From NCBI GenBank assembly GCA_948938605.1, contig CARAIG010000079.1:15-64014 (forward strand): DNA of 64,000 bases. Reading direction: 5' to 3'. The position numbers were made by a program, and so were the translations under genes. The first letter of the stretch is position 1. Each line of letters starts with the position of its first letter. The notes beneath the pieces are model-generated. The model was not told the DNA's origin. It saw nothing but the letters and a program-made list of their open reading frames with translations, and did no database searches. Origin of the DNA: an uncultured Eubacteriales bacterium (GTDB taxonomy: Bacteria; Bacillota; Clostridia; Christensenellales; CAG-314). This document shows positions 7,686-64,000 of the stretch, one piece after another.

Positions 7686-7886
7686 ATGAACTATGGCGAA
7701 GCATTAAAGTATCAACGTGAAGAAGCAGGTTTAAGTCAATTAGAGTTGTCCGCTAAAACGGGCATATCTCACCAAAACATAAGCCGATGGGAAAACGGTA
7801 AAGTATTACCGAACATTGATTTTTGCGTTAAGTTAGCAAACTTTTACGGAATATCGTTAGACGAACTTATCGGACGAAAAATATAA
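7686..7886 (+). CDS. XRE-family HTH transcriptional regulator (Cro/CI-like, 66 aa)
   Basis: LSQLELSAKTGISHQNISRWENGK is a typical HTH_3 sequence. ATG 7686 follows an AAGGTG RBS. The gene is divergent from the other small HTH gene. Confidence 0.8.
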   Translation: MNYGEALKYQREEAGLSQLELSAKTGISHQNISRWENGKVLPNIDFCVKLANFYGISLDELIGRKI

Positions 7887-7992: not shown

Positions 7993-8022
7993 GGCGTTCG
8001 CAAGTCTGCGACTTGCTCGGCT
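7993..8022. repeat. Dispersed intergenic repeat core, copy A
   Basis: GGCGTTCGCAAGTCTGCGACTTGCTCGGCT. Its reverse complement matches 59673-59700 at 28 of 30 positions (two 1-nt indels). Confidence 0.7.
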
Positions 8023-34106: not shown

Positions 34107-36860
34107 TTATTCGGAACGCAAACTTTCGACAGGATCTTTCTTTGCTGCTAAACTTGCGGGGATAAGTCCCGAAATAAGCGTTAATACAATACTTACTCCA
34201 ATCATTATAAACGCTTGCCAAATAGGCAGTGATGCAATTGTGTAAATACCGAATAGCGAACCCAAAATAAGGTTGATTACCAACGATATTCCGTAAGTTA
34301 ACAATATACCTATAACGCCGGAAGCTCCGCCGATAATAAACGTTTCGGCAATGAACAAATTGGATACGTCTTTTTTGCGTCCGCCGAGAGAACGTATAAC
34401 GCCGATTTCCTTGATACGTTCGATTACCGATACATAGGTAATAATTGCAATCATAACGGTAGATACTACCAACGACAGCGCAGTAAACGCAATTAACGCC
34501 ACAGTAATTATATCGATAAATTGGTTAATCATTCCTATTACTATTTCCAACGTATCGGTGTACATTATGTCTTCGCGCTCAGTTGGCGCAACTTCAACGC
34601 CGTTAATCGTCAATGTTTTGTCACCGTTCCATTCGTTAAGGTAATCAGTTACTAAATTTTTATCGTTAAAACTAAGCGGATATATGGCTATTGTGCTGGG
34701 AATGCTTACTCCGCCCAAATCGCGCTTCGACAGCGAATACTCCATTTCCGCATTGCCGTTATTCATCATTGCGCTCATCATTGCTTGCATTGTGTCCATA
34801 CTGCCCACAATGCCGATTTCGTCATATCTGTCAATGCCGTTTTCTGCATTTTCATTACGCATTGCAAACGAATAATTATACGTTACGCAATTGAGCATAT
34901 CGGCAAGGCTCGGCTTGCTGTCCGCATTTACCTTAATGGAAAAACTTTGCTTGTTGTTGTCATTAAGATATTTAACTATTTCGGACGATTTACCCGTTTC
35001 AAGCACTTCGTCTATTAACTTTTCGGTGTAATAGAATCCCGATTTTAAAGCGCCGTAATTAATTGTGTCTTTGGGACGCAAAATAGCGGTAATCGTCAAT
35101 TCCTTGGCACCGTCTTTTTTAGACATTTCTTCGACGGTAGGATTGTATGTAAACCTTGTATATTCGCCAAACGACTGCTTGTTGTAAATGTCATCGTTGG
35201 GATACCAGGTAAACTTTTTACCTAATAAGTCTTCGTATGAAATCCTTTCGCGGAATTTAGCGGGATTATTTTCGGCATCAACGGCATTTTCCACAAGATT
35301 TACAAATTCGTCTTGACTGAAATATCCGTATTGCGCAAGCAGCAAATCGGTCAATGAAGTCTTGCTGTCCAATACAATCATAATTTCGTCCGCTTCGGTT
35401 GCAATTTTACCGTCGCCCAAAATATCGTACTGCGACAGTATGTAGTCGGAATTGTTTGGAGCAATGCGGAAACTTTCGGTAAACATAGATATGTATGCTG
35501 CATATTGCGCGTATTCCGTCTTGCTTAACATTTTAGAGTACAATGTGTTAGCGGCAGACAACGACATATTTTTAGTTCCGTCAACCATACTGAAATCGGT
35601 ATACAAATTATTTGACAGATTGACTCCGTAACGTTTAATCATTGCCGAATAGTACTCGGAAGGCATTTGATCGACAAAATCGACATACTGCTGAGTAATT
35701 TTGTTTGTATAAACGACGCTTGCCATATCGCTCCCGCGGGAAACAAGGTATTCGACCATTTTATCGACGTTAACAAACCCGTTAAGAACTTTCATTTCAT
35801 CGTCGCCGCTATTCATCATATTGTTCATTGCGGTATTGATTGCGTCAAAATTCATTGCTTCGGCGGAAATCGTAATTGGGTTACCGCTTAACATATCGTC
35901 TTGCATGCTTGCAATGTATCCCTTAACACCGCTGGAAACTCCCAAAACGGTGGCTACGCCGACAATTCCGATAGAGCCCGCAATACATACCAAAATAGTA
36001 CGTTTTAGTTTAGACCACAAGTTCCTTGCCGACAGTTTAAATGCGCCCCAAGCCGACAATTTTGCCTTTTTCTGTTTTTTATCCTTTTTGCCATTTACGG
36101 GTTGTTGTTCGACAATATCGTTTGACGCAGACGGGCTTTCGGTAGCGGTTGATTCAACCGATTGTAAGTTTGTTTGTTCCCCGTCATAAGGATTGCTGTC
36201 GTGAACTACTTCACCGTCCAACAAATTGATAATACGCGTGGAATACCTTTCGGCAAGTTCGGGGTTGTGCGTAACCATTATGACAAGACGTTCGTCGGCA
36301 ATTTCCTTGATAATGTCCATTATCTGCACCGAAGTCGTAGTATCCAACGCCCCCGTAGGTTCGTCCGCAAGCAAAATTTCCGGTTCGTTGACTATTGCGC
36401 GCGCAATTGCTACGCATTGACATTGTCCGCCCGAAAGTTGATTAGGCTTTTTACGGTATTGACCTTTTAACCCTACTTTATCCAACGCTTCGTGAGCGCG
36501 GCGGACGCGTTCCGCTTTGTCCACGCCCGAAATAGACAACGCCAATTCGACGTTTTCGGATATGGTTTGGTGAGGAATAAGGTTGTAACTTTGAAATACA
36601 AAACCTATGCTGTGGTTACGGTAGTTATCCCAATCGCGGTCGGTAAAACGCTTGGTGCTTATATCATTTATAAACAGTTCGCCGTCGGTGTAATGGTCAA
36701 GTCCGCCTATAATATTAAGCAACGTGGTTTTTCCGCAGCCGGACGGTCCTAAAATGGAAACGAATTCGTTTTTACGGAAAGTTAAATCCACGCCTTTTAA
36801 TGCGTGTACCGTTGTGTCCGCAACATGATAGTCTTTGATAATTTTACGTAATTTAAGCAT
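34107..36860 (-). CDS. Fused ABC ATPase + FtsX/MacB-type permease with a large extracytoplasmic domain
   Basis: N-terminal ATPase (GPSGCGKTT, LSGGQCQ, LLADEPTGALD), a Lys-rich linker, TM1, a ~450-aa extracytoplasmic region and a C-terminal FtsX-like 3-TM bundle. Confidence 0.85.
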   Translation of the reverse strand: MLKLRKIIKDYHVADTTVHALKGVDLTFRKNEFVSILGPSGCGKTTLLNIIGGLDHYTDGELFINDISTKRFTDRDWDNYRNHSIGFVFQSYNLIPHQTISENVELALSISGVDKAERVRRAHEALDKVGLKGQYRKKPNQLSGGQCQCVAIARAIVNEPEILLADEPTGALDTTTSVQIMDIIKEIADERLVIMVTHNPELAERYSTRIINLLDGEVVHDSNPYDGEQTNLQSVESTATESPSASNDIVEQQPVNGKKDKKQKKAKLSAWGAFKLSARNLWSKLKRTILVCIAGSIGIVGVATVLGVSSGVKGYIASMQDDMLSGNPITISAEAMNFDAINTAMNNMMNSGDDEMKVLNGFVNVDKMVEYLVSRGSDMASVVYTNKITQQYVDFVDQMPSEYYSAMIKRYGVNLSNNLYTDFSMVDGTKNMSLSAANTLYSKMLSKTEYAQYAAYISMFTESFRIAPNNSDYILSQYDILGDGKIATEADEIMIVLDSKTSLTDLLLAQYGYFSQDEFVNLVENAVDAENNPAKFRERISYEDLLGKKFTWYPNDDIYNKQSFGEYTRFTYNPTVEEMSKKDGAKELTITAILRPKDTINYGALKSGFYYTEKLIDEVLETGKSSEIVKYLNDNNKQSFSIKVNADSKPSLADMLNCVTYNYSFAMRNENAENGIDRYDEIGIVGSMDTMQAMMSAMMNNGNAEMEYSLSKRDLGGVSIPSTIAIYPLSFNDKNLVTDYLNEWNGDKTLTINGVEVAPTEREDIMYTDTLEIVIGMINQFIDIITVALIAFTALSLVVSTVMIAIITYVSVIERIKEIGVIRSLGGRKKDVSNLFIAETFIIGGASGVIGILLTYGISLVINLILGSLFGIYTIASLPIWQAFIMIGVSIVLTLISGLIPASLAAKKDPVESLRSE

Positions 36861-37082
36861 TGTAAATATCTCCTGTTATAGTGTCGTCTAACCGTCAATG
36901 CCAAACATTTTCACTTAAATATCTTAGACATTTTTAAATGTAATGTCAAGCAAATACTCCTTATATTACTATGCAAATAATAAACTATAAAACTGAAAAT
37001 TTGTTTAAAATCACTTTTTTAATAAGCAAAATTTATTGCATTATACTTAATTTCTATATTATAAAAATGACACTAAAAATTG

Positions 37083-37149
37083 TTGACACATACCCTGATA
37101 ACGGTGCTATAATATGCCCGTTATTTATGATGTGAAATATAATTCACAT
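37083..37149 (+). promoter_or_regulatory. Promoter plus a 20-nt near-palindromic operator upstream of the LRR lipoprotein gene
   Basis: TTGACA (37083-37088) and extended -10 TGCTATAAT (37105-37113). Palindrome ATGTGAAATATAATTCACAT (37130-37149) lies in the 5-prime UTR. Confidence 0.45.
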
Positions 37150-37182
37150 TATAAAAATAATATAAAATAAAGGGGAAAAAAT

Positions 37183-39306
37183 ATGAAAAAGTACTTACGG
37201 ATTATTTCAGTCGTAATCGCTCTTGTAATGGTATTGGCAATTGTTGCCGCATGCTCGCAAACTACATATACCGTTACTTACAAAGACGGCGACAGTACCG
37301 TTTACACGCAAAAAGTTTTAGAAGGCGAAAAAGCCGCTAAAATTGCCGCACCGCAAAAACAAGACTACAATTTTGTAGCATGGCAATTAAACGATGCGGA
37401 CTACAATTTTGATACGCCCGTAACAAGCGACATTACTTTGTCGGCAAAATACGCTCCTAATACGCCCGACGACGGTTTAAGCGAATCGGTTCGCAACGTA
37501 TTGAACGAACTTGTTCCGAATGCGGAATTTGCAGTAAAATCGGCAACGATGTTAAATAACGTTAAAGCAATTTACACCGCAACAAAAGACGGTAAAGTGA
37601 CAAATATTATTTATTTGGAAAAAGAAAACACTTTTATCAAACCCGTTAAATTATACGTAGCGGTAGACAACGACAACAAAGTAGCCGCATTAAAAGTAAC
37701 AAGCGATTTCCATTCGGCAAATACATCGCTTAAACCCGGCGATCTCGGCATTATCGGTTCAAACAGCAGCACATTGGAAGCAAACTTCGACAAAGTAACA
37801 GGCGCTACGGTAACGTCTAATACAGTTAAAGAACTTGCGTTGATTGCACTTGAACAAGCAGCCGCTCTCAACGGCGGTTCGCAACAACCTGTCGATCCCG
37901 ACAACCCGTTAGTTATCGACAACGGTTTCCAATTCAACAGCAAAACAGGCGAAATCGTAGATTACGTAACATCCGCAAAAGCGCTGCTTATTCCATCGGA
38001 AATTCGCGGAGTAAAAGTAGTAACTCTCGGCGAAAACCTGTTTAAAGGCGACAACACTATCGAAACAATTATTATTCCCACATCGGTAACGGAAATAAAA
38101 TTCGGCGCTTTCCAAGATTGCACAAAATTGCAACACGTTATTTTCGAACAAAGAGAAGCCGCCGATCCCATTGCTTTCGGCACAAATTTATTTAAAGGCT
38201 GCACCGCATTGGAAGAAATAACTTGGCCGTCCAACGCGAAATCATTGCCGAGTTATGTTTTCGAAGACTGCACAAGTCTTACTACTGTTTACAACTTAGA
38301 CAAAGTTATGAATGTTGGCGTAGGCGCATTTAAAGGCTGCCAAAAACTCGAAAACGTTAATCTTGCAGGTTGCTACGTTATAGGCAGCAGCGCATTCGAA
38401 AATTGCGCTTCGCTTGCAAACATTACAATTGCAAACACAGTCAATTCAATAGGCGAAAAAGCATTTGCAAATTGCTCGTCTCTTACGGAATTTAACATTC
38501 CCGCATCGCTTAACACTATTAACCTTAATGTTTTAGAAGGCTGCGACAAACTCGCTAAAATCACAGTTGACGCCGCCTCGACAAAATATACTGCAAAAGA
38601 CAACGTATTGTATACTGTAAACTCGGCAAAAGACGCTACAAGTTTATATTTCGTTCCGTCGTTTGTTACAACATTCGAATTGCCTGCAACGGTTACAAGT
38701 ATTGCTTCGACTGCATTCAACTCCTGCGACAAATTAACGGCAGTAACAGTAGAAAGCGGTTCAACAAAATATGCGGCTGTTGACGGCGTTTTGTACCAAA
38801 TCAACGCAAGCGGAATCAAAACAAACCTTACTTACGTTCCTGCCAAATATCAAGGACAAGTAACTTTGTTTGAAGGAACTTCCTTTATAGACACAAACGC
38901 TCTTGTAAACGCAACCGGTATAACCAAGATTGTTATAGAAGAAAACAACGTAAACTTTGTAGAATTGGATCACGTAATTTACCGCAAAGCAAACGCTACC
39001 GCTACAACGTTTACCCTTGTTACCGCTAACCGCGATTACGAAGGAATTGTAACCATACTTGACGGCAACGCCGATTACACCCTTTCGACAATTTCCGCAG
39101 GCGCATTTGCCAACAGCAAGATTACGGGCATTAGATTTACCCAATCCAAACATACTAATGTCAGTTTAAATCAAACCATCTTTAAAAACGTTAACGAAGG
39201 ATTTAAAATTTATGCCGACGCGTCGTGGAAAATTACTCTTACAGGCACTGCTTACAGCAAATGGACGCAAGTAGCCGATATGATAGAGTGGACAACAGCG
39301 GAATAA
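37183..39306 (+). CDS. Surface lipoprotein: Listeria-Bacteroides repeat + FMN_bind domain + BspA-type leucine-rich repeats
   Basis: Lipobox IVAAC, a TYTVTYKDGD...FVAWQ repeat, an FMN_bind-like segment ending in FDKVTGATVTS, and many LRR_5-type repeats (IPTSVTEIKFGAFQDCTKL, etc.). Confidence 0.75.
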   Translation: MKKYLRIISVVIALVMVLAIVAACSQTTYTVTYKDGDSTVYTQKVLEGEKAAKIAAPQKQDYNFVAWQLNDADYNFDTPVTSDITLSAKYAPNTPDDGLSESVRNVLNELVPNAEFAVKSATMLNNVKAIYTATKDGKVTNIIYLEKENTFIKPVKLYVAVDNDNKVAALKVTSDFHSANTSLKPGDLGIIGSNSSTLEANFDKVTGATVTSNTVKELALIALEQAAALNGGSQQPVDPDNPLVIDNGFQFNSKTGEIVDYVTSAKALLIPSEIRGVKVVTLGENLFKGDNTIETIIIPTSVTEIKFGAFQDCTKLQHVIFEQREAADPIAFGTNLFKGCTALEEITWPSNAKSLPSYVFEDCTSLTTVYNLDKVMNVGVGAFKGCQKLENVNLAGCYVIGSSAFENCASLANITIANTVNSIGEKAFANCSSLTEFNIPASLNTINLNVLEGCDKLAKITVDAASTKYTAKDNVLYTVNSAKDATSLYFVPSFVTTFELPATVTSIASTAFNSCDKLTAVTVESGSTKYAAVDGVLYQINASGIKTNLTYVPAKYQGQVTLFEGTSFIDTNALVNATGITKIVIEENNVNFVELDHVIYRKANATATTFTLVTANRDYEGIVTILDGNADYTLSTISAGAFANSKITGIRFTQSKHTNVSLNQTIFKNVNEGFKIYADASWKITLTGTAYSKWTQVADMIEWTTAE

Positions 39307-49155: not shown

Positions 49156-49878
49156 TTACTTAATGACGTTTTGTTCGTCAGGGTGCGGCTGTTCGGAGTT
49201 TTGAATGTCGGCAACCTGTTTACCGTTTTCTTTTTCATCGTCTTGCTGTGTTTCGGATTGAACTGTTTGATCGTCATTTTCCGTTTGCCCGACAATCGGT
49301 TGGTTAGGTTCGGACTGCAACGTTACGTTCAAATCAAATCCCAACATCGTTGCAAACGTACGGATAGGTATCATACGTAAAATAAACCATACGGCAAAGC
49401 CCACTATTATGCCTGCAAGCACACCCAAAAGCGCAAGCCAAGGCATATACGAAAACATTTCGGGAGTGTTGCTTACCAAACAAAATACAATGTTTTGCGT
49501 CAGATTGTGCAGTACTGCCGACACAATGGATATTGACACAATGCTTACCTTAGGATACACCAATTCCACCAAAACAGACGACGTCACCACACTTACCACA
49601 CCTGCGGACAAACTGTACATAAGGGTAGACATATTGCCCGTGAACATACTGCCCAATACAACGCGTACCACAACCAGCACAAACGCGTCAATGGGGCCCA
49701 ACAAAAATACGGCAAGCATTGAAAAGATATTGGAAAGTCCCATTTTTGCGCCGGGCAAAATCAACGGCGGAAAAAGACTTTCAACCATAAACATAATAAG
49801 CCCCATTGCGGTCAACACCGCAAGAGTAGCAATCCGTTTAGCGGAAAAATATTTAGTTTTAATTATTTCAGTTTTCAT
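49156..49878 (-). CDS. Gx transporter family membrane protein (heptaprenyl diphosphate synthase component I-like)
   Basis: About 5 TM helices (FPPLILPGAKMGLSNIF...) and an acidic/Gln-rich C-terminal tail. It is co-operonic with the ApbE/NusG_II gene, as is typical for this family. Confidence 0.6.
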   Translation of the reverse strand: MKTEIIKTKYFSAKRIATLAVLTAMGLIMFMVESLFPPLILPGAKMGLSNIFSMLAVFLLGPIDAFVLVVVRVVLGSMFTGNMSTLMYSLSAGVVSVVTSSVLVELVYPKVSIVSISIVSAVLHNLTQNIVFCLVSNTPEMFSYMPWLALLGVLAGIIVGFAVWFILRMIPIRTFATMLGFDLNVTLQSEPNQPIVGQTENDDQTVQSETQQDDEKENGKQVADIQNSEQPHPDEQNVIK

Positions 49879-49887
49879 ATTTGTACA

Positions 49888-51876
49888 TTATTGCGAAATT
49901 ACTTTTATCCGCGACGGCGAACACACTATCGCCCTGTCGGCAACCGTTAACGGCGGGAAGTTGTACACGCAGTCTTTGTCGGAACAAGTTGCGTCGGTCA
50001 TTTTTACCGACACTTCAACGCCGCGCGTAATTGTCATTACGTTATACTGTTCCTTACCGTCCTTTGTACGGTAAAACTTTACGTTAATATCGTTGCCGTC
50101 TTCGCTTACTTCGATGTTCCAGCCGCTTGAATTTTCCGAGTATACAACCCACTCGTTACGGGCGACGTTATATGCAAACAGCAATTCGCCTTCGTCGGAA
50201 TTACTGAAATCAACCACTTGCACCGCGCGTATCTGTTCGGTTTCGGCACCGAAAATTACGGCAAACAGCACTACGATAAGCAAAACAACAGCCAAATATA
50301 TTCCTACATCCCCTATTTTGAACGGTTTGTCGCGTTTGGCGTTTATTACGTTATTTGCAGTTTTTTTACGTCCCTTTACAATGTGTACTACTATTACGGC
50401 AACCACCAGCAACGCTAACACTACGCCGAGAGCGATTATCCAACCCGTATAACTTTCAGATTTTACCGGCGCTTTTGCCGATGCGTCATAAACGAAATTG
50501 CCGTTGTCGTCTACTTTAACCGACCAAGCGTATTCGTCAAACGTGTCGCCTTTAACAACTTCCGATTTGTCGTAGTTTGAAAGCAACTGTTTTCCGCCGT
50601 CGACAGTTTCGTAAGTGAGCAGTACTTTTATGCCGTTATCTTTTAAATAACCGTTCATAAAGTCGACTACCCGATCCCTGCCCATTACCGTCAACGCCGT
50701 TGTAAGACAGTCACCCATTGTTGCGGAATAGTTTTGCGGAGCAATTATAGTTATGGAATTTACTCCGGTTTGTGCGGGCTTGCCTAAACTTCCGTCTACA
50801 ATGTGCGAGTATTGTACGCCGTCAGTTGTGTACTTGCGTTCGTACTGCCCGCTGCTGGATACTGTGGCATTAAGCAAATGAGCCCCGACAACCGTAGGTT
50901 GATACAAAAAGTCCTTTTTGTATGGATCGTACGTAAGTAAAACATAATCGCCGCCGTCATAGTTTAAGCCGTATGTTTGACTGCTCGAACCTGCGTCAAC
51001 GTAAAAACGCGTAAGTCCCCTTTGCTTAAACATTTCCCTTATACCGTCGGCAACGTAGCCCTTTGCAATACCGCCCAAATCCAACCACTGCTCAAACGTT
51101 TCGCCGTCTACTTGCGCAGCTTGAACGTTTTTGGTTACGTAAAACTTGCCGTCGGACGAACTTAATTTTACCGCGTCTTCGCTAAAATCGGTAAAAGACG
51201 GATTACTGAATGCCTTTACGTATTTTTCGTCGGGCAACGGGTATCCGTAAGTTTTGTTGTCCCATACCCTGTCGTAAGGCAAATTACCGTTGCGACGATA
51301 CGTACGGGAGGAAAAGCCCCACAAATCGACCAGACGATATACAGCAGGATTAAACGCGCCGTTTGTAGCAATGTACATTTGACGCGCGGTATTAAGCATA
51401 TTGTAAACAGGTTCGCTAATTTCCACTGTTTCGCCGCACTTTGCTTGATTATAACGGTAAATATCCGAAAGCGGCGTACCGTCTGTGCCGTCGTACTGAG
51501 TATTTGCAAATCCGTCTATACCGTTAATATATTTGTTAATTTCCGTTGCCAAATTAATTAAGTACTTTTGCGAACTTTGCTGCGTAACGGTTAAATTGTC
51601 CGCTGCTTGGTTTATAGGGAAATCGATAGTAATTGCTTCGTCGCTGTAAATACGTACGTTTACTTCGATGCCGCTCCCGCCAAAATACAACCCGCGGTAG
51701 TTTACCCCGACTATACCGTTGGAATCGCTAACCGATTGAAGATCAAACCCCTGCCCTTGATAATAGTATATGTTGCGCGACGAAACGTCTTCGGCAAAAG
51801 CAGGCATAACAGCCGACGCCAAAGACAACACTGCAATCAACGCTATTAAAATCGTCAAGAGTTTTGCTTTTTTCAT
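49888..51876 (-). CDS. apbE: Secreted FAD:protein FMN transferase (ApbE) fused to a TM segment and a NusG domain II-like C-terminal domain
   Basis: Signal peptide, ApbE-like motifs (FNPAVYRLVDLWGF, LGGIAKGY, VSSSGQYERKY), two TM helices and a C-terminal CSDKDCV...IVCSPSRIKV NusG_II pattern. The start (51876 vs 51888) is uncertain and has no clear RBS. Confidence 0.65.
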   Translation of the reverse strand: MKKAKLLTILIALIAVLSLASAVMPAFAEDVSSRNIYYYQGQGFDLQSVSDSNGIVGVNYRGLYFGGSGIEVNVRIYSDEAITIDFPINQAADNLTVTQQSSQKYLINLATEINKYINGIDGFANTQYDGTDGTPLSDIYRYNQAKCGETVEISEPVYNMLNTARQMYIATNGAFNPAVYRLVDLWGFSSRTYRRNGNLPYDRVWDNKTYGYPLPDEKYVKAFSNPSFTDFSEDAVKLSSSDGKFYVTKNVQAAQVDGETFEQWLDLGGIAKGYVADGIREMFKQRGLTRFYVDAGSSSQTYGLNYDGGDYVLLTYDPYKKDFLYQPTVVGAHLLNATVSSSGQYERKYTTDGVQYSHIVDGSLGKPAQTGVNSITIIAPQNYSATMGDCLTTALTVMGRDRVVDFMNGYLKDNGIKVLLTYETVDGGKQLLSNYDKSEVVKGDTFDEYAWSVKVDDNGNFVYDASAKAPVKSESYTGWIIALGVVLALLVVAVIVVHIVKGRKKTANNVINAKRDKPFKIGDVGIYLAVVLLIVVLFAVIFGAETEQIRAVQVVDFSNSDEGELLFAYNVARNEWVVYSENSSGWNIEVSEDGNDINVKFYRTKDGKEQYNVMTITRGVEVSVKMTDATCSDKDCVYNFPPLTVADRAIVCSPSRIKVISQ

Positions 51877-52111
51877 AAGTAACGACATTTTAACATTTTT
51901 AAACAAAATTAGCAACCGATAGCGTAAAGTAAACATTTATTACCCTATAAATATTTAATATGGAACGTTTGCCGTATTGAAAATAAAGGGGAAACGTGAT
52001 ATAATTAAATATACAGTCACTCCAAATAAAGTTTAGCAACGGAACGCAGACTGTGATTATATGCAGTTGCTTTGTGCGTAACGCACAATTAAATAAAGGA
52101 AGTGTACAAAT

Positions 52112-52751: not shown

Positions 52752-55700
52752 TTATTCCGCAGTTGTTTGCGGTTCGCTCTTTTCCTTTTTAACGTTTACT
52801 ACGTAGCTGAGATTTGCTATATTAAGCAACATATCGGCTAAAACGTCCTTTTTAATGTTGATACGTTCTTCAAATACTATCCAACGTCCGTCCGATTCGT
52901 CGCTGTGCGGCAAACTCAACAGCAAACTTACATAAGTGGCCGTTTTTACGTCTTGCGGCAAATCGTCGTAGTTTAATATTTCGTCGTCGTGCTTTACCAC
53001 CACTTTGCGGTCGCTTTCGATAAGCGTGTAACCGCCTTCCACAAATGCGTTAAGGTACTGCGTGGCAACCGTTAAAGTTGCGTTGATTTTGTCGCGGATA
53101 AGCAATCCTATCAAATCGTTGTGATCGATTGTAGCGCGCAAGTTGGTCAACGTCCTTGCTTCGGCTGCGGCGGCAGTTACCTTCATACGGGCTGTGCTTG
53201 CCGCAACGTAGTTATCCAGTTGAAGTTTGCGTTCCTGCTGCAATTCGTCTTGACGTCTGCGCAATACCGCAAGTTCGTTTTCCTTTGCAACGATTTCATC
53301 GCTAGACACATTTTCGACAGGACGGCTTTGCAGTAAATTGTACAAATTGTCGATTTTTTCCGCAAGCAAAGTGCGGGTAGAATCGTATTCGTTTACCGCC
53401 TTGCGCAAGTCTTCGACATTGCCTTCCAAATCTTCTGCCGTTACCTTGTCTATATCCAACCCTTTAAGGTTAAACTCAAATTGCAGTTCTTGGTGCAATT
53501 CGGCGTATTCGCCCACCTTACTTTCGTACAGCCATTGAGACTTTTCCATTTCAAGGCGCTTTTGGAAAACGGCTTTTTCCGTTTCCGCCTTGGAATCAAG
53601 CAACATTTGACGTTCGCTTTCCACATCGCCCAAGTCGTACTTGAAGTTAGCAAGCGCTTGTTCGATATCGTCGCTGCCTGCGTATTTCTTGGCTTTGTCG
53701 TTAGATTCGGCAATCTGCTTTTCGTTAACTTGAATAGTCTTGGATATTTCCATTATTTCGCCGCGTACGTCGTCCAACTTGGATTCGATACTTTCAAGCT
53801 GACGGGAAACCGCCTTGTACTGCTCATAGCTTGCCGACAAGCGTTCGCCTATGTCGTTAAGTTCTTCCTTAACTTTATCGTTGGTGCTAACTAACGAATC
53901 AACCGACATATGCTCGCTGTCAAGCTGCTGCTGCGTTTCCTTTAAATATTTAAGGCGCGATTTCAATGCGGATATTTTGGCGCGCAGTCCTTCGGTTGCG
54001 CGTTTAAGTTCGGTCAATTCCGCTTCGCTGCGCACTGCGTCTTGCTGTACGTCCAACAAGTATTTTGTTCCGCCGTTTTCGCTGTTTAACGCTTTTAAGT
54101 AGTTAAATACCGTTTCGTTGCTGTTTTGCGAAAGTATTTCGTTATAACGATTATTTATGTTATTCTTTTCGGTTCTAAGCGTTGCCATTTCCGCTTGGTT
54201 TATTTCGAAATGACGCTTGATTTCCTTTAACGAGCCTTCTAATTGATACGAACGTTGCAGCAGCAATTCCCTGTCCATAGCGCGGTCGGTCAGTTCCTGT
54301 TCCAGCGCTTCGATTTCCTGATCGTGGAAATTTGCAGTAACAGCAAATACGCCCGACGCGTCGTCGCTGAATACCTTTTGACTGTTAATGAATACTTCGC
54401 GCTTAAATTCTTCCTGTTTGCGGAGCATTGTCTTGTTATATTCCGCTTCCAACTTTATTTTAGACTGGTCGACTTGGGAAAGCCTGTACTTGTAGTCTTC
54501 CAAGGCGCGTTCCAAATTGCGTTGCTTTTCCTGCAAGGATTGGTTGATTGTTTCGAGTTTGGAATACTTAGCGTCCAAAACTTGCAATATAGTATCCTTT
54601 GCTTTTAACGGAGTTACCGCAATGTCTATTTCCGCAACCGAGCGGAAACGCTTCATTTGCATAACCAAATTGCTTTCGCGTTCGGCAATTTGACTTTCCT
54701 TTACCGCTACTTCGCTTTGTAATTTTTCTATTTGCGATTCCACTTCGTCGATTTTTACGTCAACGCGGACTGTTTCCAACAATTCGCCAACCGATTTGGC
54801 AGGCACGTCAAACGCATCCAAACTTGTTTTAACGTCGCCTATGGACTTTTCAAGCTCGTCCATTTTGTTGGTATACATTACTTTTTCGGCGGACAAACGT
54901 TGTTGCTTTTCGTTAAGTTCCAACAGCTGTTCGTTAAGTTGTTTGTTCTTTTCGTACAATGCCGAAACGTAAGCAAGTTCGTTATTGATGGATTCGACGC
55001 GGGTACGCTTGTCCTGCGACAAAGCGTATTGACGGTTTTTATCCTCTAACTGCTGATTAATGCTGGCAAGTTCCTTTTCCTGCCATTCCAATTCGCTGGT
55101 AATTGCATAACGCTTTTTTTCGTATTCGGCGCGTTGTTCTTCGACGGAATGCAATGTCTTAACTTTGGGAATAAGAATTTCAATATCGTCGCGCAATTTT
55201 ACTTTTTGACGGGCTTGCTCGATTTCGTCCTGACGGGAAGTAAGCAAATTGTATTTTTGCTGTGTGTTTTCGAGATCGCGCGCTATGTCGTCGCGCAATC
55301 CGTTTGCTGCAAGACGGGCTTTTAAGTCGCTAAGCTCGGTAGTAGCCAAAGTAATGCTTTTAAACACTTCGTTGAGTTCGGCGTTTACTTCGTCCAACCT
55401 TTCGGGCGATACGGACAGTTTAGCGTCGGGACTTTCGGCATATGTTTTGACTTTTTGCAACGCCTTTTCCCTTAACGCGCGCGCTTCTTCGCTGCTGCGC
55501 AGTACGCTTGCCTGAACGTCGGCGAGCATTCTAAGTTCGTCAAACATCATCAAATTGCCGGCAAAATTGTCGACGGCAATATTGTTGACATAGTCGATTT
55601 TTAACATATCGTCCAATTTTTCGTGGATAATTTCTTCCACGTAACTGAGCGCGCGGGTACGGGCGACCACTTTCCATTGGTCGTCTTCCATCTTTTTAAG

Positions 55701-55946
55701 AACGGTACGCGTCGTTTCGTCGTCGTTGTGAAGGCGGCTTAACGAATACTTTTCCGAACCTACAAAAAATTCCACTTCGACGTCCATTACGCAATCGACT
55801 TCTTCCTTAAAACAGAACTCGATATAGTTGTTGAGTTTTCCGCCGTTGGTGGTTGCGAGTTTTTTGCCCTCGTCCGCAGTGCCGAATGTAAAAATGCGCT
55901 TTTCGTTATTACGATTGTCCAAAGCAATAACTTTGCTTATTCTCAT
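52752..55946 (-). CDS. Very long coiled-coil protein, SMC/Rad50/SbcC-like architecture with degenerate ATPase motifs
   Basis: 1064 aa from ATG 55946 (AAGGGG RBS). Small globular N- and C-terminal domains flank ~850 aa of heptad-rich E/K/L/Q sequence. No GxxGxGK[ST] Walker A. C-terminal LPQDV and WIVFEE sit where the signature and Walker B motifs would be. Confidence 0.6.
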   Translation of the reverse strand: MRISKVIALDNRNNEKRIFTFGTADEGKKLATTNGGKLNNYIEFCFKEEVDCVMDVEVEFFVGSEKYSLSRLHNDDETTRTVLKKMEDDQWKVVARTRALSYVEEIIHEKLDDMLKIDYVNNIAVDNFAGNLMMFDELRMLADVQASVLRSSEEARALREKALQKVKTYAESPDAKLSVSPERLDEVNAELNEVFKSITLATTELSDLKARLAANGLRDDIARDLENTQQKYNLLTSRQDEIEQARQKVKLRDDIEILIPKVKTLHSVEEQRAEYEKKRYAITSELEWQEKELASINQQLEDKNRQYALSQDKRTRVESINNELAYVSALYEKNKQLNEQLLELNEKQQRLSAEKVMYTNKMDELEKSIGDVKTSLDAFDVPAKSVGELLETVRVDVKIDEVESQIEKLQSEVAVKESQIAERESNLVMQMKRFRSVAEIDIAVTPLKAKDTILQVLDAKYSKLETINQSLQEKQRNLERALEDYKYRLSQVDQSKIKLEAEYNKTMLRKQEEFKREVFINSQKVFSDDASGVFAVTANFHDQEIEALEQELTDRAMDRELLLQRSYQLEGSLKEIKRHFEINQAEMATLRTEKNNINNRYNEILSQNSNETVFNYLKALNSENGGTKYLLDVQQDAVRSEAELTELKRATEGLRAKISALKSRLKYLKETQQQLDSEHMSVDSLVSTNDKVKEELNDIGERLSASYEQYKAVSRQLESIESKLDDVRGEIMEISKTIQVNEKQIAESNDKAKKYAGSDDIEQALANFKYDLGDVESERQMLLDSKAETEKAVFQKRLEMEKSQWLYESKVGEYAELHQELQFEFNLKGLDIDKVTAEDLEGNVEDLRKAVNEYDSTRTLLAEKIDNLYNLLQSRPVENVSSDEIVAKENELAVLRRRQDELQQERKLQLDNYVAASTARMKVTAAAAEARTLTNLRATIDHNDLIGLLIRDKINATLTVATQYLNAFVEGGYTLIESDRKVVVKHDDEILNYDDLPQDVKTATYVSLLLSLPHSDESDGRWIVFEERINIKKDVLADMLLNIANLSYVVNVKKEKSEPQTTAE

Positions 55947-56128
55947 AAGATACCCCTTATAATTTAAGTAAACTTTGCAATTTTGTTGATTAGACAGTTT
56001 TTTTGTGTTAGAATAAAATAACAAGTTAACAAAAAAGGCATAAAACGGGTATTTTATTCTACATCTACTTATCATTATACTCTATTACGCCAAAATAATC
56101 AATACTTTAACGACAAAAGAGGTAATTT

Positions 56129-62987: not shown

Positions 62988-64000
62988 ATGAAGAAAAAAT
63001 TGCTTGTTACAGTTCTTTCTCTCGTGTGCGTAATCGTTTGTGCGTTCGGGCTTGTCGCGTGCGACAGAAATAACGAGCCGCCCGCGCACACACATACCTA
63101 TTCGGAAGAATGGCAAAGCGATGCAAACAACCATTGGCACGCGGCGACTTGCGAACATACGGACGAAAAAGGCGACGTGGCAGCGCACGTTGACGCAAAC
63201 AACGACGGCAAATGCGATATTTGCGAATACGAGCCTATAACCGTAAAAGTCGGCGGTACATACTATTTCTGCGAGGACGATATTACCGATGATTTAATTT
63301 ATATCGTTTTCCACCAAACAGGCAAATGGACTGACGACGAAAACAATTCGGGCGAGTACACGGTGTTCGGCAATACCGTTACTTTATACATAACGGTTGA
63401 AGGCGAAAAAATCGAGTTTGCAAGCGGCACGGTAAACGGCGACGATATTATTCTCGATTTAGGCGCGGACGTTACTTACCGCAAGGGCGAAGACATAGGC
63501 AATAAGCCACAAGAAAAAACTCTGCAATACGCGTTAAGCGAAGATAGAACGTATTACGTTGTCAAAGGCATAGGCGGGCTTACGGGAGAAATCGAAATCC
63601 CCGACGAGTGGAAAAGAAAACCCGTCAAAGAAATTGCCGAAAACGCGTTTGCCAACTGTAAAGACTTAACGAACATAACTATCGGTGCAAACGTTGAAAC
63701 CATAGGCAAAAAGGCTTTTTACAAGTGCGCTAATCTTACGAACGCAATTCTCGGCGAAAAAATAGAAACCATTTTTGAAAGCACGTTTGAAGATTGCAGA
63801 AAACTTGAAAGCATTACTATACCGGCTACGGTAAAAAGCATAGAAAAACACGCATTTACTTGCTGCCTTGCTTTGAAAGACGTTCATTATACAGGTACGG
63901 CTTCCAAGTGGGCGCAAATAGATTTCTATTACGATTTCAACTCACGTGACGCACAGGTTTCCAACCCGTTAAGCGACAATAATATTTATATCGTCGGAAA
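62988..64000 (+). CDS. BspA-type leucine-rich-repeat lipoprotein (partial; runs off the window)
   Basis: Hand-translated open frame from ATG 62988 (AAAGGAG RBS) to the window end, with no stop. Lipobox GLVAC, a His/Cys-rich HTHTY...HWHAATCEHTDEKGD...DGKCDICEY module and LRR_5 repeats (IAENAFANCKDLTNITIGANVETIGKKAFYKCANL...). It is absent from the ORF track because it has no stop codon in the window. Confidence 0.75.
   Translation, partial: MKKKLLVTVLSLVCVIVCAFGLVACDRNNEPPAHTHTYSEEWQSDANNHWHAATCEHTDEKGDVAAHVDANNDGKCDICEYEPITVKVGGTYYFCEDDITDDLIYIVFHQTGKWTDDENNSGEYTVFGNTVTLYITVEGEKIEFASGTVNGDDIILDLGADVTYRKGEDIGNKPQEKTLQYALSEDRTYYVVKGIGGLTGEIEIPDEWKRKPVKEIAENAFANCKDLTNITIGANVETIGKKAFYKCANLTNAILGEKIETIFESTFEDCRKLESITIPATVKSIEKHAFTCCLALKDVHYTGTASKWAQIDFYYDFNSRDAQVSNPLSDNNIYIVG

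Follow-up and report, generated by a model that had tools for sequence, protein, structure and literature searches.

Results

A surface lipoprotein with a predicted flavin domain and a leucine-rich repeat scaffold

The gene studied here lies at positions 37183–39306 (forward strand) of a 64,000-nucleotide stretch of contig CARAIG010000079.1 (assembly GCA_948938605.1, positions 15 to 64,014), from an uncultured Eubacteriales bacterium of the CAG-314 lineage; this whole stretch is called the window below. The gene encodes a membrane-anchored surface lipoprotein that joins a predicted flavin-carrying domain to an adhesin-like leucine-rich repeat (LRR) scaffold. The combination of FMN_bind and LRR_5 domains is real, conserved and rare, and apparently it has not been described before. 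From comparisons of sequences and gene contexts we propose, with a probability of about 0.6, that the protein is an ApbE-flavinylated surface redox module, in which an LRR that docks a ligand would be joined to a membrane-proximal flavin mononucleotide (FMN), with Rnf or diffusible flavins as the feeding source.

The open reading frame is intact and translates into 707 residues. Its N-terminus, MKKYLRIISVVIALVMVLAIVAAC, is a lipoprotein signal (37183–37254) with the lipobox V-A-A-C24, and it gave weak matches to lipoprotein signal families of NCBIfam. Cys24, the predicted lipidated residue 1 of the mature protein, is kept in 10 of the 11 full-length homologues that we aligned (37–73% identity), the remaining one being truncated at its N-terminus. 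All three domains of the protein exceed the curated Pfam cut-offs. Flg_new (PF09479), a Listeria-Bacteroides repeat that would form a membrane-proximal stalk, covers residues 29–89 (37267–37449) with 43.3 bits against a cut-off of 27. FMN_bind (PF04205) matches residues 154–223 with 31.5 bits (E 2.9e-7, cut-off 22; 35.1 bits in a genome-wide profile scan), and LRR_5 (PF13306) reaches 151.6 bits over three stretches of a BspA-type solenoid that occupies residues 245–707 (37915–39303) behind a conserved N-cap, FQFNSKTGEIVD. An earlier note, made from the letters of the window, had described a 707-residue lipoprotein with the lipobox IVAAC, a Listeria-Bacteroides-type repeat, an FMN_bind-like segment and about 450 residues of BspA-type LRR; each element was recovered, including the Pfam match on which the note had staked the FMN_bind segment.

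Structure prediction, which the same note had proposed as a check, returned an RnfG-like domain and an LRR solenoid. Residues 95–232 (37465–37878), modelled by AlphaFold with a mean predicted local distance difference test score (pLDDT) of 70.5, show the elements to be expected: a helix, a sheet of five strands, a loop and a helix at the C-terminus. The model was built from a shallow alignment of 8 sequences, because the domain alignment, used as query in a word-indexed search for homologues, gave just two fragments. When this model was compared with the Protein Data Bank (PDB) by Foldseek, the top match was RnfG of Clostridium tetanomorphum (7zc6_G; TMq 0.65, probability 1.00, E 3.9e-3) and the second was RnfG of Acetobacterium woodii (9eri_G). 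The motif stands ahead of helix 119–135 (domain numbering), as in the RnfG/NqrC fold. A PDB profile search with the domain ranked the flavinylated FMN4 domain 8p2b and RnfG 7zc6_G highest, at weak E-values (0.13 and 0.49), and aligned residues 206–209 with the SGAT/TGAT of these two structures. A PDB search with the single sequence of residues 90–261 returned chance matches such as STAT3, so that a profile was needed instead. By hhalign, the domain matched the RnfG of a relative with 86.5% probability over its C-terminal half. A complete RnfG-like fold is thus supported by the model. In the full-length AlphaFold2 model (pLDDT 78, likewise from a shallow alignment) the LRR forms a long solenoid, mostly at 85–95 between about residues 280 and 660. 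Its Foldseek matches were 4gt6 (E 8e-13), 4fs7 and 4h09 from gut commensals, the pneumococcal PcpA (4cp6) and TpLRR of T. pallidum (6mlx), and the N-terminal Flg_new repeat resembles the InlB B-repeat 2y5p.

Conservation of the predicted flavin acceptor site

The FMN_bind domain contains F-D-K-V-T-G-A-T-V-T-S, within which D203-K-V-T-G-A-T209 (37789–37809, confirmed by translation at the place where the earlier note had put it) fits the definition of the flavinylation motif, D-x-x-[S/T]-G-A-[S/T] (PMC12052999), with T209 as the predicted FMN acceptor. Gly207 and Thr209 are invariant in all 11 homologues, and in relatives with two FMN domains both copies keep the acceptor threonine; the conservation of this residue in homologues, proposed earlier as a check, is therefore borne out. 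Also invariant are G189, G192, S195, F202, S212, T214, V215, K216, L218 and A222, including the S-x-T-V-K-x-L start of the helix that follows the motif. The segment from G189 to A222 is the best-conserved part of the domain, with 47–72% identity to the window protein against 41–61% for the rest. Two more distant LRR-fused lipoproteins read T-G-S-T (P0026) and S-G-A-T (P0029) at this site. The motif had been called perfect in the earlier note: this is right for the window protein and does not extend to the family, in which Asp203 is not conserved.

The fusion as an inherited unit

The two halves of the protein are conserved alike in homologues from Bacilli, with 41–46% identity in the FMN domain and 40–45% in the LRR, which is colinear over all 463 residues. 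The genome that carries the window encodes about 15 LRR_5 proteins, and these match the LRR of the lipoprotein with no more than 25–35% identity over partial lengths. Because the Bacilli homologues are colinear and the LRR_5 paralogues of the same genome are only distantly similar, the FMN_bind domain and the LRR have been inherited as one unit. The fusion is kept across homologues of 37–73% identity and in the more distant P0026 and P0029. Other loci with LRR N-cap or Flg_new patterns had no FMN domain. A Rosetta-stone test in the Bacilli order, looking for small FMN proteins beside LRR genes, was negative in that all fetched matches were RnfG proteins in rnf operons. Three weak matches in the window's own order were rejected as members; they are multi-FMN or other FMN_bind proteins without an LRR fusion. 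A further LRR_5 protein begins within the window itself (62988–63998, forward strand), in an 868-residue frame that runs past the window end.

Distribution and history of the family

An exhaustive phmmer search of 1.84 billion representative proteins with residues 90–261 found 42 relatives. These are LRR-fused lipoproteins of the same architecture and proteins that consist of a single FMN_bind domain or of several, almost all of the latter proteins having [S/T]GA[S/T]. A sample of 150 other genomes from the window's order contained no member of the family. A pattern scan of the species representatives of the Genome Taxonomy Database (GTDB) gave four full-length members, all from uncultured gut Bacilli: Staphylococcus sp. 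CAG:324, Mollicutes UMGS116 and two metagenome-assembled genomes. In that Bacilli order 4 of 106 genomes are carriers, and the family also occurs in a few metagenomic clusters. Horizontal transfer is indicated because the family is patchy across two classes yet colinear over its whole length, and this pattern indicates an accessory gene that is mobile between Clostridia and Bacilli. The gene is stable within its species; 22 contigs encode the identical protein, the same number as for DnaE, and strain variants differ by one residue.

The number of flavin modules varies in Bacilli. Two near-identical FMN domains are present in P0005 and in two loci, one of them at 7857–10571 of L006 and the other at 8001–10733 of L007 (CAG:324), and one- and two-module alleles coexist within clusters at 90% identity (770 versus 910 residues and 769 versus 904 residues). 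Such alleles indicate that the flavin module was recently duplicated in tandem or deleted. The alleles of the P0005 and P0004 clusters differ by about 135–140 residues. A tree of FMN domains places the LRR family together with the multi-FMN lipoproteins P0017 and P0037, and a branch with 97/97 support parts these from the RnfG domains encoded in operons. With this branch between them, direct recruitment of the FMN domain from a Bacilli RnfG, which we considered, is unsupported.

A single ApbE and the Rnf machinery

Only one ApbE is encoded in the genome (1.77 Mb, 93.7% complete), and its gene lies in the window on the reverse strand (49888–51936, with a likely start at 51876). The earlier note had placed a secreted ApbE at 49888–51876, and this was confirmed: the product has a signal peptide, an ApbE domain (150.2 bits), two transmembrane (TM) helices and a C-terminal NusG_II-like domain (weak, 22.8 bits). 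It is the predicted flavin transferase, acting in trans. Directly downstream of apbE lies a gene for a Gx-family (Hpre_diP_synt_I) membrane protein (49156–49878, reverse strand; Pfam 118.9 bits); the protein bears a faint resemblance to the S-component of energy-coupling factor transporters. The lipoprotein signal and the signal peptide of ApbE put both proteins outside the cytosol of the same cell, and the same holds in the four Bacilli hosts.

The only other FMN_bind protein of the genome is RnfG, within rnfD-G-E-A, and a search of the genome found no NapH-like conduit, no PepSY_TM conduit and no genuine fumarate-reductase-like enzyme. This RnfG (L002:370–1767) has 465 residues in two FMN_bind-like halves, the first with S-G-A-T and the second, which is the one that scores in Pfam, with a non-canonical T-G-T-T. 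RnfG frames are 470–490 residues long in two genomes of the same genus and about 200 residues in others; since these two genomes lack the lipoprotein gene, co-variation of a long two-domain RnfG with the lipoprotein was rejected. An RnfG with two FMN domains is also encoded by many rnf operons of the Bacilli order to which CAG:324 belongs (L063:6680–7666, L064:6912–7994 and L065:6233–7318), and P0007, a metagenomic relative that shares the same N-terminus, carries four.

Every genome with the lipoprotein also encodes ApbE and Rnf. In all four Bacilli genomes with the family, ApbE is encoded in an rnfCDGEAB-NusG_II-Gx-ApbE arrangement and the lipoprotein is the only extra FMN_bind protein; in Staphylococcus sp. 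CAG:324, for example, rnfC-D-G-E-A-B is followed by NusG_II, Gx and ApbE as separate genes (L061:7094–14179). The ApbE::NusG_II fusion is found likewise in all five genomes of the same genus or family that lack the lipoprotein gene, in one of them on the same contig as dnaE, about 8–10 kb apart, as in the window. A specific link between ApbE and the lipoprotein, on the grounds of their being near each other, is therefore rejected, and the suggestion that the nearby ApbE is a partner particular to this gene had to be given up: it is ancestral and belongs to Rnf maturation. The 10.6-kb distance between the two genes is coincidental, because ApbE occurs in relatives without the gene and in the Rnf operon of distant relatives. 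Judging from these gene contexts, ApbE is kept for the maturation of Rnf and the lipoprotein is a probable later client of that machinery. NusG_II and Gx would seem to be factors in Rnf/ApbE maturation and may serve flavin export. A survey of FMN_bind-LRR fusions and of their co-occurrence with ApbE had been suggested beforehand; its first part showed the fusion to be rare, as in the 4 of 106 genomes above, while its second part was uninformative, since ApbE is present without the gene too.

Expression signals, neighbouring genes and insertion

A candidate sigma-70 promoter, read from the sequence itself, precedes the lipoprotein gene (37083–37113, forward strand). It consists of TTGACA (37083–37088), a 19-nt spacer and an extended -10 element, TGcTATAAT (37105–37113); a consensus scan with a spacing limit of 16–18 nt missed it. 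A ribosome-binding site, AAGGGG (37170–37175), lies 7 nt before the ATG.

Upstream, a divergent gene (34107–36860, reverse strand) encodes a 917-residue ABC_tran-FtsX fusion, identified by Pfam and synteny; relatives have several ABC_tran-FtsX paralogues, in frames of 790–1074 residues. The neighbours of the lipoprotein gene in the window are this fusion, ABC exporters, dnaE, whiA and murB. The nearest relative, L033 (a Logan contig; 71–73% identity), has the same order of ABC-FtsX, lipoprotein gene and dnaE. Its flanks are 82–92% identical to those of the window and the lipoprotein itself 71–73%, and the lipoprotein is for this reason taken to evolve faster than its surroundings. The ABC-FtsX and lipoprotein genes are jointly present in the window and in L033 and jointly absent from three other species of the genus, where dnaE directly adjoins an ABC_membrane pair. 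Because both genes are missing beside dnaE in these three species, 34107–39306 is read as an insertion. Its G+C content is about 0.37–0.42, against 0.43–0.48 in the flanks.

In relatives, the neighbours of the family are housekeeping or surface-protein genes. In CAG:324 and UMGS116 the homologue lies between a 2077-residue S8-protease-PA-Fn3-LRR_5 protein and a 2057-residue Flg_new-Big_2-amidase protein; the locus is, as read from its predicted products, an island of surface proteins whose LRR_5 scaffolds bear differing payloads. In CAG:324 the S8 subtilase protein is encoded at L007:1568–7801 and the Flg_new-Big_2-amidase_2 protein at L007:10928–17101. Elsewhere in the window, a 1107-residue open reading frame (52752–56075, reverse strand) has no Pfam match at E ≤ 0.001.

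Discussion

Proteins flavinylated by ApbE are now regarded as one of the chief routes, other than cytochromes, by which bacteria pass electrons beyond the cytosol. In the mechanism that we favor, Sec export and lipidation at Cys24 would bring the window protein to the outer face of the cytoplasmic membrane, where a single small Flg_new domain would separate its RnfG-like FMN_bind domain from the lipid anchor. The single extracytosolic ApbE would flavinylate Thr209 covalently, taking in FAD and leaving FMN as a phosphoester on the threonine, and the C-terminal 460-residue BspA-type LRR would hold this redox center against a specific ligand or partner protein. Electrons would most plausibly come from Rnf, whose FMN-bearing RnfG and RnfD face the same compartment, or from diffusible flavins, and they would pass via the covalent FMN, in one or two modules depending on the allele, to the partner bound by the LRR. 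Flavinylation itself, the source of the electrons, the direction of their flow and the ligand of the LRR are all inferred here.

Several observations weigh against this mechanism. No electron-transfer gene adjoins the lipoprotein gene in any genome examined, and its neighbours differ between lineages; the locus has no dedicated membrane electron-transfer apparatus of the Listeria type, Ndh2, EetA and EetB not having been searched for genome-wide. The co-occurrence with ApbE and Rnf is not discriminating, both being present without the lipoprotein gene as well. Within the domain, the E-value of the RnfG match is modest, and the motif-bearing loop (residues 174–212) is modelled at low confidence in both the full-length and the domain models, so that its fine geometry cannot be read. 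In homologues, V, S, A or K stands in the place of Asp203, and in two of the 11 Val stands in that of Ala208 (T-G-V-T). These replacements and the low-confidence loop, together with the modest Pfam score of the domain, would speak for a structural relic, non-flavinylated in vivo and serving as a mere stalk or spacer that sets the LRR apart from its anchor. We hold this to be quite improbable. Thr209, Gly207 and the S-x-T-V-K-x-L segment are invariant at an overall identity of 37–73% and are better kept than the rest of the domain, and every host genome has an extracytosolic ApbE. Moreover, the variable positions are those at which the enzyme is tolerant: according to a review of ApbE, a change of the Asp of the motif to Ala has minor effects, a change of the Ala to Val keeps about 50% flavinylation in the substrates tested, and only loss of the Thr abolishes the modification (PMC12052999).

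The absence of linked electron-transfer genes from the loci examined would also fit a protein that is an adhesin first: a flavinylated BspA-type adhesin without a metabolic relay, whose flavin might act as a sensor, as a store or scavenger, or as a reductase of small molecules or oxygen that guards the surface. A genome with about 15 LRR_5 surface proteins is a natural setting for such a protein, and the surface-protein island of the Bacilli relative suggests that LRR_5 is a general scaffold for display and docking with varied payloads. This reading nevertheless seems unlikely to us, because conservation of the acceptor site is just as strict as in genuine redox FMN_bind domains, all the characterized ApbE-flavinylated FMN_bind domains serve electron transfer (PMC8238504, PMC12052999), and a varying number of FMN modules is easier to reconcile with a relay than with a sensor. 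Alternatively, the RnfG-like domain could dock on Rnf, or replace or extend RnfG, with the LRR organizing Rnf-associated proteins in place of binding an external ligand. RnfG proteins are indeed the best structural matches of the domain, Rnf is the only flavinylation-linked membrane complex found in the genome, and related lineages expand RnfG to 2–4 FMN domains. Yet no rnf operon contains the lipoprotein gene or lies close to it, the 97/97 branch stands between the family and the operon-encoded RnfG domains, and the lipoprotein is absent from close relatives with the same Rnf and the same long RnfG; we accordingly give little credence to an accessory role of this kind.

The proposed redox module can be placed among known systems. 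Like PplA of Listeria monocytogenes and the FMN_bind lipoproteins of Gram-positive extracellular electron transfer (Light et al. 2018; PMC8238504), it is a membrane-anchored lipoprotein of the outer face with an [S/T]GA[S/T] site for ApbE/FmnB; its family varies in the number of FMN domains, as PplA-type lipoproteins do, and the nearest domain relatives of the family are multi-FMN lipoproteins. Unlike PplA, it has a single FMN domain, and it has a 460-residue BspA-type LRR and a Flg_new repeat that are both missing in PplA; its gene has no adjoining locus of the Ndh2/EetA/EetB/DmkA type, and its electron source would need to be Rnf or diffusible shuttles. RnfG and NqrC (7zc6_G, 9eri_G) share its fold, with the motif just ahead of the C-terminal helix, and they would share its compartment and its modifying enzyme. 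They differ in having an N-terminal TM helix where the window protein is lipid-anchored, and the latter is LRR-fused, encoded outside the rnf operon and in a separate clade.

Multi-flavinylated proteins (Meheust 2021; Tong et al. 2023, PMC10339131, FMN4 8p2b; Huang et al. 2024, PMC11334425) are extracytosolic beads-on-a-string arrays of FMN_bind modules, which the two near-identical modules of some relatives of the window protein recall. The window allele has one FMN_bind domain and so falls outside this class, which has at least two per polypeptide, and its partner is an LRR_5 solenoid in the same chain, of which these papers make no mention; some multi-flavinylated gene clusters encode cell-wall-binding domains (PMC8238504, PMC10339131, PMC11334425). 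By analogy, the presence of one or two FMN modules suggests a resemblance to multi-flavinylated relay proteins. The LRR, for its part, has the repeat type, the fold and the surface location of BspA-type proteins (Tannerella BspA, PcpA 4cp6, TpLRR 6mlx, 4gt6 and 4fs7), which form large paralogous families in gut anaerobes; none of those named here, unlike the window protein, has a cofactor-binding redox domain.

The remark in the earlier note that this domain combination was uncharacterized agrees with the literature that we consulted. The text of the main flavinylation survey (PMC8238504) contains neither "LRR" nor "leucine", and PF13306 is missing from the part of its supplement that was examined; full-text searches for flavinylation with leucine-rich repeat, or for FMN_bind with LRR_5, gave nothing relevant and no link between the two.

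In gut anaerobes, LRR_5 scaffolds seem to carry functional payloads: in the window protein this would be a flavin, and in the protein encoded next to a relative's homologue it is an S8 protease. Genes of this payload-scaffold kind would pass between Clostridia and Bacilli and draw on the flavinylation machinery that is kept for Rnf. For most orphan FMN_bind proteins no acceptor has, to our knowledge, been named. Where a flavin module is built into the same chain as a protein-recognition scaffold, the implication is that the acceptor or donor is chosen by binding, and the question of the acceptor thereby becomes experimentally approachable, by pull-down. A more specific form of the redox-module proposal, which we put forward as speculative and rather doubtful, is a contact-dependent electron outlet. 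The LRR would bind an external partner, such as a host mucosal glycoprotein, a dietary particle or a microbial surface protein, and the covalent FMN, fed from the flavins that Rnf exposes outward, would exchange electrons only at contact. If this were true, strictly fermentative gut Firmicutes with small genomes would have a targeted and horizontally transferable means of extracellular or interspecies electron transfer.

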